A stretch of 64,000 nt of DNA from NCBI RefSeq assembly GCF_029227855.1, contig NZ_CP074356.1; one strand, written 5' to 3'. The DNA is from Escherichia coli (GTDB taxonomy: Bacteria > Pseudomonadota > Gammaproteobacteria > Enterobacterales > Enterobacteriaceae). This document shows positions 54,101 through 57,100 of this stretch, in pieces; position 1 is the first letter of the stretch, and the number at the start of each line of letters is the position of its first letter. Position numbers: made by a program.

Positions 54101-57100
54101 CTTCTGGAATATCATTACGGCTGTCGATCCCCACTGTCATTCCGATCAGCGTCTGCTCAAACCCGGCACCCGCATCGGTGGTGACATTATTACGGGTGTT
54201 ATACGTCGCCCCCCAGACATTATTGTTGTGTGGACTCGCTTTCATTATGTTCAACCGCTCGCGAATACTGTTTAGCTCAGCATCAAATACCAACGGTAAT
54301 GTTGCTGCCATATTGAGTACAGCTGCCGTAGAAGGCGTGATGCGTTTCTCCGGAACGGGTGTCGGCGTTGGATCGGGAGTCGGGTCTGGATTTGGATTTG
54401 GGTTTGGGTTCGGGTTCGGGTTCGGGTTCGGGTTCGGGTTTGGATTTGGATTCGGATTTGGGTTTGGATTTGGGTTTGGGTTCGGATTTGGGTTGACATC
54501 ATTAGTCAGGTTCCAGTTGCTGTTGCCGTCGCTTTTCAGGACATACTCATAGGTCCCAAGATCAACGAAACCACCGGTATTGCCCAGCGTAAACGACGCA
54601 TCCCCTCCCCCTGTTTTCACCAGCGTCATCGCATCGTCAGACTGAGGGCTGACGCCGGTATCCTGAACAAAGATTTTAAAATTACCAGTGGCATTGTTGT
54701 TGACGACCAGTTGATCGCCCCGGGAGCCTGCAATGTTGGTATGCAGGTAGAAATTACCGCTGCCGGAAAGTTCACTGGTGGTCAGCGTATTGTAGATACC
54801 GTTAGTTGTGGCAGGCGCTGATAAATAAACATCACCGTCGTTGAGTAGCAAACTGTTTACTCTATATTCGCAGTTGCTGGTGCCTGCACAGGAATTATTG
54901 CTGTTAAGCCAGACACTGCCCCGGCTGGCAGCCGTCAGGTCGGCAAGCGTCGTATCAACGCCATTGCCGATAGTGAATGTCGCGCTATCGGTAATCCGGA
55001 TCGCCCCTTCGAGTTTAACTGGCGTAACATTATCCCGTGGCGTCATTAACGACAGGCTTCCTGTCGCGCCACTGACCGATGCATCCGCCAGCGTACCTGC
55101 GTAGACGATTGCTGTCCCGCCAGCAACCTGGAGATCTTCTGCCCGGGCCAGAGCCTGAAACTCATCTTTTGACCGCCCAAGGGTATATTGCCCACCAGAG
55201 TTAACCTTTGTGGCGGAGTCCTGACCCAGGTTTTGCATTGCACCACCCTTGTCAACCGTGGAGTCACGGGCTTCGGTACCTGCTAATACCAATAAATTAC
55301 CGCCATTTTCCAGCAACATATTGGTCGCTAAATTGCTGGCAATGGAAAAGGTGCCGTACTGGTGCGTACCGCTGATTTCAATACCGTTAGCCGTGCTCGT
55401 CTGGAGAGCGGCACCGCTGTTCTGGACGATATCTGTCGCTTTGCCATTATCGTTGACTGTCAGCGTTCCGCCTTCATTGATCGTTGTTTTTATTGCCTCT
55501 CCGTTAGCTGAAACTGTTTGTATTCCGCCGTCGTTAATTGTTGTCTCATTTGCCACACCCTCGACGATTTGTTCACCGCCAGTGAGCGTCGTGCCTGTCG
55601 CAGTGGCTTTTGTTTTGACGATCTCCCGACCGCCCGCATTGACCTGTGTTTTGGCGGAAGTGGTGTCTGACTCCACGGTTAACACGCCGCCATTTGTCAG
55701 CAGGATATTGTTCGCCGCACCCTGCTCGATGCTGAACGCGACGCCATCAGCGCGTGTCCCTGTGACCCGCGTCGCCCTGGTGGTTGCAACCAACGCGCCC
55801 TGACTACTCTGCTGTATCCCCGTTGCGCTGCCTTTCTCCCGCACATCGAGTATGCCGCCATTGTTAAGTCTGGTGGTATATGCTACGGCCTCCTCGTGGA
55901 CAATCAGCTTACCGCCAGCATCAACGATGGTATCTACCGCCGAGGTTTGAGCTACGACCGTCAGTTGGCCGGTATTTTCCAGCACAACATGCTCAGCCCT
56001 GCCTCCGGTAATAGTGAAGTGAGATGACCTCTGGTATCCATCAATATCAGTCCCCGCGCCCGTGTTGGCAACTAAAGCACTCCCCGTGTCCAGGTAAACC
56101 CCATGTGCGATACCGCCGGTATCGACAATCAGCGTGCCTCCGGCACGAATATTGCTGCCAGTTGCCGTACCTCCTTTCTCAACAACCTGCTTGCTCCCGG
56201 AAGAGATATTTGTTGTGTCAGCTTTCCCGCCGCTCTTGATATTTTGCGTGCCACTGTTGATATTAGTTCCCGTAGCAATACCATGATTATAAATATTCTG
56301 TGTACCGCCATTAATTATGGTATTAGTCGCGTTCCCGGCAACATCCATGGCCCCGCCGTTATCTATTCGGGTCGCATCAGCTTTAGCATTCGTTAAAACT
56401 GACATTGTTCCTTTATCGTTAATTATCGTCCCTGTAGAAATTCCTCCCTCACTAATTGTCTGGCTGCCACCGTTAATGACTGTATTATTAGCCTGCCCCT
56501 GATAAGAGCCATGACCAGATACCTCTTGATGTCCACCAGTATCAATAACACTTCCATTAGAAATCCCGCCATATACCTCCTGATTGCCGTGATTGATGAT
56601 ATGAGCATTATTTGTTGTACCTCGTTCATCTACTCTTTGGCTGCCGTCTACAGTCTCATCATTTACAACGCCAATAACATTAGAAGTGAAGGCCGTCATC
56701 CCAGGCGGGGCATATATCATGGCAGCTATCAATAAGGAAAGTACTGAGCGGTGAAAATAATAGCGACTGATTCTGTTCATAAATTTCATCCTCTGAAAAA
56801 TGAATACTGAGTACTGAGTAGCGTCTAAGTAACCTAAGCTCGGCTGCAACATCAGCCCGCAGGCACCAGACCAGGGGATTCATCCTGAAGAGACAGCGCA
56901 GGTGTATTGTGTTCACCGCTCACCAAAGACATCATGATGAAATGATGATATCCCGCATAATAAAGAGGCATTTTTTAAACGCAATGCGCTGAAGTGTAGT
57001 TGGATAAAAAATCACTCTTTTCAGATAATACTGTCGTACGCTTATCTTTCGACAATGAGGCCGTCGGCAAAATAAAATGACTAATGTAATCGTTGCTGAT

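Follow-up and report, generated by a model that had tools for sequence, protein, structure and literature searches.

A hypervariable, frame-preserving Pro-Asn repeat in the proline-rich linker of an autotransporter at the minE locus of Escherichia coli

Results

Our study examined a stretch of 64,000 nucleotides of Escherichia coli (NCBI RefSeq assembly GCF_029227855.1, contig NZ_CP074356.1; hereafter the window, whose positions are used throughout), in which a gene next to minE, predicted to encode an autotransporter, carries a run of hexanucleotide units encoding (Pro-Asn)17, or (PN)17. Comparison with orthologous loci confirmed that this run is a real, hypervariable and frame-preserving variable-number tandem repeat (VNTR) in a proline-rich autotransporter stalk. 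The explanation that best accounts for these observations as a whole, and in which we place considerable confidence, is that of an in-frame coding microsatellite, driven by slippage, that encodes the spacer of the stalk.

The hexanucleotide array

Tandem Repeats Finder (TRF) called an array of period 6 at 54382-54494 (18.8 copies, 85% matches, score 121) and also reported it with a period of 18 (score 140). On the minus strand, the open reading frame (ORF) across the junction reads ...NDV N(PN)17 PDPTPDPTPTPVPEKRITPS..., the tract being preceded by WNLTNDVN, and the exact (PN)17 corresponds to residues 788-821 at 54390-54491, where all 17 units consist of CCA or CCG followed by AAC or AAT. The motif (GGRTTY)4 occurs 14 times in the window, always inside 54388-54489, against 0.00 expected from 100 dinucleotide-preserving shuffles, and no other tandem array of more than ~11 copies was found when the 64 kb were scanned. 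An earlier, sequence-only reading had described about 17 six-bp units at 54390-54495, and its coordinates, unit description and count were all accurate. In the coding sense, the array begins with nine interrupted (mixed) PN units (54438-54491), continues with a perfect CCGAAC x5 sub-tract (54408-54437), and ends with one CCAAAC followed by two CCAAAT units (54390-54407), all on the minus strand. It passes directly into a degenerate P-X tail, PDPTPDPTPTPVPE (residues 822-835; 54348-54389, minus strand), which is constant in length among the alleles and is common to the ypjA paralog described below. Two other candidates in this region were rejected: a plus-strand ORF at 54091-54552, in which the repeat would be read as (GF)n, is an antisense shadow of the real gene, and terminator-like plus-strand matches within the repeat are an artefact of G-T "pairs" between GGGTTC units.

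Length polymorphism among strains

The query used to find orthologs included the intergenic region on the minE side, so that full coverage was reached by true orthologs only; flanks free of 28-mers shared with ypjA were not findable. Among the best 60 records, the matched span was 1743, 1749, 1755, 1767, 1773 or 1785 bp, compared with 1731 bp in the window, and nearly all the differences were multiples of 6, an off-frame span being that of H154 (1748 bp). The tracts read in 14 fetched orthologs contained 7, 13, 19, 19, 20, 21, 22, 23, 24, 24, 25, 26 (with a 1-bp loss) and 27 units, and that of the window contains 17. In a second search, the repeat in the query was cut to 3 units and the flanks were aligned separately by BLAST, which made the ranking independent of repeat length. 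Its 60 best records, a sample that is not random, have near-identical flanks (99.7-99.8% over 1.65 kb) and carry 17 units (2 records), 19 (5), 20 (5), 21 (14), 22 (27), 23 (4), 24 (2) or 26 (1); the distribution is unimodal, with its mode at 22 and a Nei diversity (D) of 0.72. Three linker lengths were present among the E. albertii homologs.

The sequence-only reading had proposed that repeat number differs between strains, and the comparison across isolates agrees with it: orthologous loci range from 7 to 27 units and, far from an identical number in all related genomes, at least 8 length alleles exist with near-identical flanks. It had also anticipated that slippage of a 6-bp unit would alter linker length in frame, and 14 of the 15 sequenced alleles are in frame. 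The exception is a single record (L019, NZ_CP007393.1, strain ST2747) that has lost one base in the CCGAAC run (...CCGAAC CGAAC...), so that the gene is out of frame and annotated as a pseudogene; its sister record, CP007394, is 1 bp longer. The loss reflects a sequencing error or else a genuine, rare frameshift, and not a systematic on/off mechanism.

Changes within perfect sub-tracts

Run-length encoding of 15 alleles identified the CCGAAC sub-tract as the chief site of copy-number change. Within the close clade, the nine interrupted units that open the array are constant (11 of 11 alleles), and all differences lie in the pure runs of CCGAAC (x5-12) and CCAAAC (x1-3). The numbers of CCGAAC and CCAAAC units, respectively, are 5 and 1 in the window (17 units in total), 6 and 2 in L004 (19), 7 and 1 in L015 (19), 8 and 1 in L005 (20), 8 and 2 in L006 (21), 10 and 1 in L011 (22), 9 and 3 in L007 (23), 10 and 3 in L008 (24), and 12 and 3 in L009 (26). 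Since L004 and L015 are equal in length and unequal in run composition, the events appear to be recurrent. The CCAAAC and CCAAAT units at the end of the array are secondary variable sub-tracts, the latter encoded as x2-8 in other lineages, which have a variable CCAAAT run (x4 to x8) together with a 12-bp CCAAAT-CCGAAC period. In ypjA the linker is degenerate; K-12 has VKPNPDPIPNPKPDPKPDPKPDPNPKPDPTPDPTP, and two further variants occur. The ~22 ypjA matches listed from a spread sample fall into only three length classes (-24, -30 or -36 bp, with the window as reference). Variability thus tracks repeat purity, which makes the locus a textbook illustration of slippage. Confinement of the changes to perfect sub-tracts points to slipped-strand mispairing in replication, of which it is a signature, and on population evidence the tract behaves as a hypermutable simple sequence repeat (SSR).

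Whole CCN-AAY units are gained or lost inside the homogeneous CCGAAC, CCAAAC and CCAAAT sub-tracts, under the mechanism that we propose by slipped-strand mispairing, and the 6-bp unit keeps the reading frame through each change in copy number. The Pro-Asn repeat forms the bulk of a proline-rich spacer running from the last beta-helix rungs (pertactin-type domain) to the pore helix and beta-barrel. Its product would be an unstructured or polyproline-II-like stalk of ~28 to 68 residues, as suggested by its composition and by low predicted local distance difference test (pLDDT) values, and this stalk would set the distance of the adhesin passenger from the outer-membrane barrel. Because the spacer appears to tolerate almost any length, most of the length variation is probably neutral or weakly selected.

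Tempo relative to point substitution

The 6.2 kb around the tract were aligned with the tract removed. Across this flank, L004 (19 units), L006 (21), L007 (23) and L011 (22) show 0 substitutions and 0 indels, L015 (19) shows 0 substitutions and one 1-bp deletion, and no difference separates the flanks of the window (17) and L005 (20). Loci with 0 substitutions in the flank differ by up to 4 units in tract length. Identical flanks combined with unequal tract lengths imply that the tract evolves far faster than substitution. The annotation of the L015 ortholog as "frameshifted" was considered as a mutation of the repeat and rejected, the indel being located in the barrel at window-equivalent position 53859.

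The two flank haplotypes, represented by the window and L004, differ by 14 substitutions, 11 of which fall in 50789-52144, a stretch that takes in minD (51983-52795) and sequence upstream of minD; this cluster may be a small recombination tract. The other three are located at 53269 (the minE-side intergenic region), 56618 (the only site at which the haplotypes differ within the autotransporter gene), and 56961 (just upstream of the gene).

Architecture of the host gene

The whole autotransporter ORF, obtained by ORF scan, encodes 1140 aa and occupies 53430-56852 on the minus strand, between minE and ymgJ/ymgI/ymgG. The start chosen by the NCBI Prokaryotic Genome Annotation Pipeline (PGAP), at 56780, yields a protein of 1116 aa beginning with MNRISRYYFHRSVLSLLIAAMIYAPPGMTA, which by eye looks like a Sec signal peptide; an exact-sequence look-up of this 1116-aa protein in a collection of 15 billion proteins returned no entry. 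The Pfam matches run in order from passenger to translocator. The passenger (54861-56690, minus strand) contains AIDA-type repeats that would form the beta-helix adhesin region (PF16168, 6 stretches, 1.3e-85; TIGR04415 repeats), and it is followed by a pertactin-type C-terminal passenger domain, junction or autochaperone-like (PF03212, residues 665-783, 1.4e-46; 54504-54860, minus strand), that ends in ...GTYEYVLKSDGNSNWNLT. On the far side of the repeat, a long alpha-helix is predicted at residues 840-872 (54237-54335, minus strand), which we interpret as the translocator's pore-spanning linker helix, and a 12-strand autotransporter beta-barrel at residues 877-1139 (53436-54224, minus strand; PF03797, residues 879-1118, 1.3e-45). 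The generic autotransporter barrel model TIGR01414 of NCBIfam also matches (8.3e-97). Among the named equivalogs of NCBIfam, none scored above its cutoff for this protein, and the identification of the gene as tibA was rejected because no TibA-specific match was found.

AlphaFold2 was run on residues 651-1140 with an alignment of 21 sequences (mean pLDDT 83, predicted template modelling score 0.75). In the model, confident beta strands run to residue 783, and residues 784-837 (pLDDT 35-47) lack secondary structure; next come a 33-residue helix at 840-872 (residues 190-222 of the fragment), within a region whose ITPSTAAVLNMAA..PLVFDAEL motif is conserved in homologs, and then the 12-strand barrel. 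In Foldseek searches, the barrel matched the translocators of BrkA, Hbp, EspP, AIDA-I and NalP (E from 1e-19 to 1e-11), and the N-terminal part of the modelled fragment matched P.69 pertactin (1dab). This layout and the structural matches on either side place the PN tract at the junction between passenger and translocator, so that the (Pro-Asn)n linker suggested at this position by the sequence-only reading is borne out by ORF reading, Pfam order and the predicted structure. With a barrel, a pore helix, an AIDA-repeat passenger and a pertactin-type junction all predicted, the protein can be assigned to the type Va autotransporters of the AIDA family. The linker region itself (787-840) gives weak compositional matches to the N-terminal proline-rich region of SslE/AcfD, TonB, BimA, and the NANP repeats of the Plasmodium circumsporozoite protein. 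None of these indicates homology; they show that unrelated surface proteins share the use of alternating Pro-X spacers. A Pfam match to Trypan_PARP was rejected as below cutoff, and matches to circumsporozoite protein in the PDB were rejected as reflecting composition only.

Locus, distribution and relation to ypjA

E. coli Z0117EC0032 (dog, Korea; NZ_CP098217) matches the window at 100% identity. The gene is flanked by minE on one side and by ymgJ/ymgI/ymgG/ymgD on the other, with an intact ycgH beyond. Most E. coli, K-12 and B strains among them, have only a 344-bp 3' remnant at the minE-ymgJ locus, annotated in strain B95 as "autotransporter beta-barrel ... frameshifted; incomplete", and the K-12 remnant is presumably the pseudogene ycgI. 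The remnant at the minE locus of O157:H7 is longer than that of K-12 (query 1-1115 vs 1-705). At this locus, the gene described here is the intact form, and 415-422 of 5,426 complete E. coli genomes have a copy that includes the minE intergenic spacer, the linker and everything between them.

In every carrier genome, the RefSeq/PGAP label for the minE-locus gene is "ypjA: adhesin-like autotransporter YpjA/EhaD", because its 3' 2.4 kb are 94% identical in nucleotide sequence to ypjA/ehaD. Most carriers have both the minE-locus gene and ypjA (two places per record), and one gene name is thus applied to two paralogous loci. The K-12 ypjA locus lies among prophage-type genes (yfjW to ypjF), and ypjA adjoins ssrA in strain EC17CM2. 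YpjA has 1526 aa, compared with 1140 aa here, and outside the 3' 2.4 kb the N-terminal third has 83-86% nucleotide identity. Neither the locus nor full-length collinearity agrees with orthology, and the sequences identify the minE-locus gene as a paralog of YpjA/EhaD. YpjA/EhaD (K-12 b2647, O157 EhaD) has the same domain order, and its PX linker ends in the same tail; unlike the homogeneous and variable PN linker of the window gene, however, the YpjA linker is a degenerate mixture of PN, PD, PK and PI of nearly fixed length. In O157:H7 strain 7409 (L017), ypjA/ehaD is annotated as frameshifted, and the linker reads VKPNPDPNPNPNPNPKPDPKPDPKPDPKPDPTPEPTP.

The linker in homologs

Protein searches returned mostly partial sequences and YejO-type proteins, and they were used for linker comparison only. 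Homologs from E. albertii, Citrobacter, Salmonella, Klebsiella, Erwinia, Rahnella and others have a proline-rich segment at this site, bounded by ...GTYEYxL...W.L and by the conserved motif at the translocator helix, whose length and composition are highly diverse. E. coli YejO, which is 49% identical, has no linker at this site. The divergence of the homologous linkers, together with its absence in YejO, indicates a weakly constrained spacer that is not needed for secretion. At 3.1 A per residue, linkers of 28-68 residues would measure ~9-21 nm if fully extended.

Other autotransporters and repeats in the window

A second AIDA-type autotransporter is present at 12841-15725 on the plus strand as two overlapping ORFs (12841-13977 and 13953-15725), a split that suggests a frameshift. 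We take it to be ycgV-like, beside what looks like dhaR. It has a proline-rich linker at the equivalent position (VPEPTPNPEPTPAPAQPPIVNPDPTPEPDPTPAPAPTPKPTT) that includes an 18-bp, 3.2-copy repeat encoding PDPTPE (TRF 14760-14816). The ycgH gene (58132-60795, minus strand) is an intact autotransporter ORF of 887 aa with a short, repeat-free junction between passenger and barrel (NEEDNSSEGNSESTETPTPVLRPEAGS); in strain B95 delta A the same gene bears the annotation "frameshifted; internal stop". In addition, an ORF of 478 aa (35083-36519, plus strand) has a leucine-rich-repeat-like middle region and two internal tandem repeats, a 12/36-bp array encoding acidic QENL/EENL and a 9-bp array encoding EKLEKLEDL (TRF 35408-35542 and 36237-36284).

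Discussion

Several observations weigh against the reading of the tract as a slippage-driven microsatellite encoding a stalk whose length is largely neutral. Linked isolates have the same allele (DETEC-P649 and P666; Z142-2, -4 and -7; ES1 and "ST38"), which argues against switching on outbreak timescales. The gene is missing or truncated in ~92% of complete genomes; most E. coli have lost it, so that any function it has is dispensable. The unimodal distribution in the 60-genome sample, which is not random, might be due to stabilising selection and not to neutrality. The extended form of the stalk is one that we infer from Pro-X composition, low pLDDT and the analogy with TonB-type spacers.

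The main alternative is that the tract is an adaptive locus of length tuning or antigenic variation, its hypermutability having been selected because it varies the projection of the passenger through O-antigen or capsule, or varies an immunodominant epitope; we regard this as rather unlikely. A tract so variable between invariant flanks, at the surface-exposed base of an adhesin, would fit such a role, and the positionally equivalent R2 repeat of pertactin also differs between alleles. The homogeneous (PN)n, compared with the degenerate linker of the paralog, is compatible with a recent expansion, and O-antigen reportedly restricts the access of antibodies to outer-membrane antigens (PMC7015928). 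However, the shared alleles of linked isolates and the loss of the gene from most genomes count against selection for length as well, homologous linkers drift freely and YejO lacks one, as expected of a weakly constrained spacer, and a drift-only model of stepwise mutation would yield the same distribution. In its more specific form, in which the PN tract would be a selected length-contingency locus whose stalk of ~9 to 21 nm adjusts the projection of the passenger past O-antigen or capsule, or varies an immunodominant repeat, we find the proposal slightly less probable still.

Length differences could also have arisen by recombination or gene conversion, either with the ypjA paralog or between strains, instead of by local slippage. 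Ectopic exchange is conceivable, given the 94% identity of the 3' 2.4 kb and the presence of both copies in most carriers, and clustered single-nucleotide polymorphisms upstream, in minC/minD, separate the flank haplotypes. Nevertheless, the ypjA linkers are mixtures of PN, PD and PK that have no pure CCGAAC run in common with the array, the alleles differ in run length alone, with the flanks and the interrupted section identical, and no conversion tract is visible, all of which make this origin very improbable. That the variation is an artefact of assembling or sequencing a low-complexity repeat, as the few off-frame lengths (the 1-bp loss in CP007393 and the H154 span) and the error-prone behaviour of repeats in some technologies might suggest, is hardly credible, because the differences are, with few exceptions, whole multiples of 6 bp, identical alleles turn up repeatedly in assemblies and studies that are independent of one another, replicate or linked isolates carry matching alleles, the array (42-162 bp) can be spanned by single reads, and the one "frameshifted" ortholog that was checked has its indel outside the repeat.

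The slippage-driven stalk repeat can be compared with several known systems. The closest is pertactin: the window protein aligns to residues 419-534 of the 539-residue crystal chain of P.69 pertactin (...GNGQWSLVG vs ...GNSNWNLTN), and the PN repeat starts directly after this segment, as we take the proline-rich R2 repeat, (PQP)n, to do after the same motif in pertactin. Both are short-unit proline-rich repeats of variable copy number in a type Va autotransporter, located between the pertactin-type domain and the translocator helix; the unit of R2 is PQP (9 bp), whereas here it is PN (6 bp), in many more copies (7-27) and with many alleles within one clade. Pertactin alleles vary in their numbers of R1 and R2 units, and in the crystal R2 is disordered (PMC8931430). 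The pertactin passenger is cleaved from its porin domain (PMC8931430); the window protein is not known to play a part in immunity. In TibA of E. coli, "an additional proline-rich domain" (residues 627-677) separates the junction region from the membrane domain (PMC3835316). Its architecture is the same, and a TibA-labelled metagenomic homolog has a PPEPTPP-type linker at this site, although its composition is PPEP/PTP and not PN. The (EP)n/(KP)n segment of TonB, to which residues 787-840 gave a weak match, is likewise an alternating Pro-X dipeptide spacer, a kind of sequence that is thought to be extended and fairly rigid. TonB, however, spans the periplasm, is neither an extracellular stalk nor a VNTR, and resembles the tract in composition only.

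Hexanucleotide loci are already used in E. coli multilocus VNTR analysis (CVN014-CVN017 of GECM-10), where the most variable loci have a diversity of 0.70-0.83 (PMC3519732). They resemble the PN tract in their 6-bp units, in copy numbers that vary among close relatives, and in a diversity similar to the value found here. Even when as many as 3 mismatches are allowed, none of the 20 GECM-10 primers (PMC8143711) maps in the 64-kb window, and the PN tract is consequently a different locus. The tetranucleotide contingency loci of Haemophilus and Neisseria are also hypermutable SSRs in genes of surface proteins and share the slippage mechanism. Loci of this kind turn expression on or off by frameshift or by a change in promoter spacing. 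In the PN tract, by contrast, the unit length is divisible by 3, the alleles stay in frame, and what is modulated is length and not phase; judged by its sequence, the PN tract would not be a phase-variable contingency locus in the strict sense. The sequence-only reading had offered "contingency or length-variable locus", and the second part of this description holds; a strict SSR on/off switch does not, as that reading had itself said. Periscope proteins are surface-anchored proteins whose stalks vary in length between close strains through near-identical DNA repeats (PMC9704523). The strain-variable stalk produced by expansion and contraction of DNA repeats is the shared feature; folded repeats of more than 50 residues are required of periscope proteins (PMC9704523), unlike the 2-residue unit here, with its pLDDT below 50 and predicted lack of structure. 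Our literature search did not find a description of the PN-tract locus, and PMC8281228 does not mention these genes.

Length-variable proline-rich repeats at the autotransporter junction are already known from pertactin, and the current understanding of autotransporters is unchanged by our results. What they provide is a clean E. coli case of a coding microsatellite whose changes stay in frame and whose evolution greatly outpaces that of its flanks. For annotation, the gene labelled "ypjA" in carrier genomes is a separate paralog at the minE locus, of which K-12 and B strains keep only a remnant. For typing, the tract could be a high-resolution marker (Nei D ~0.7) for the clade with an intact gene, outside GECM-10. 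Tract length may, as the sequence-only reading proposed, affect surface exposure or antigenicity. If the tract were a selected length-contingency locus, it would give lineages such as the ST38-like clade a heritable and quickly adjustable phenotype of adhesion or visibility, which would be unusual for E. coli. For the function of the protein, the natural series of alleles, from 7 to 27 units, offers material for asking whether stalk length matters behind O-antigen or capsule.

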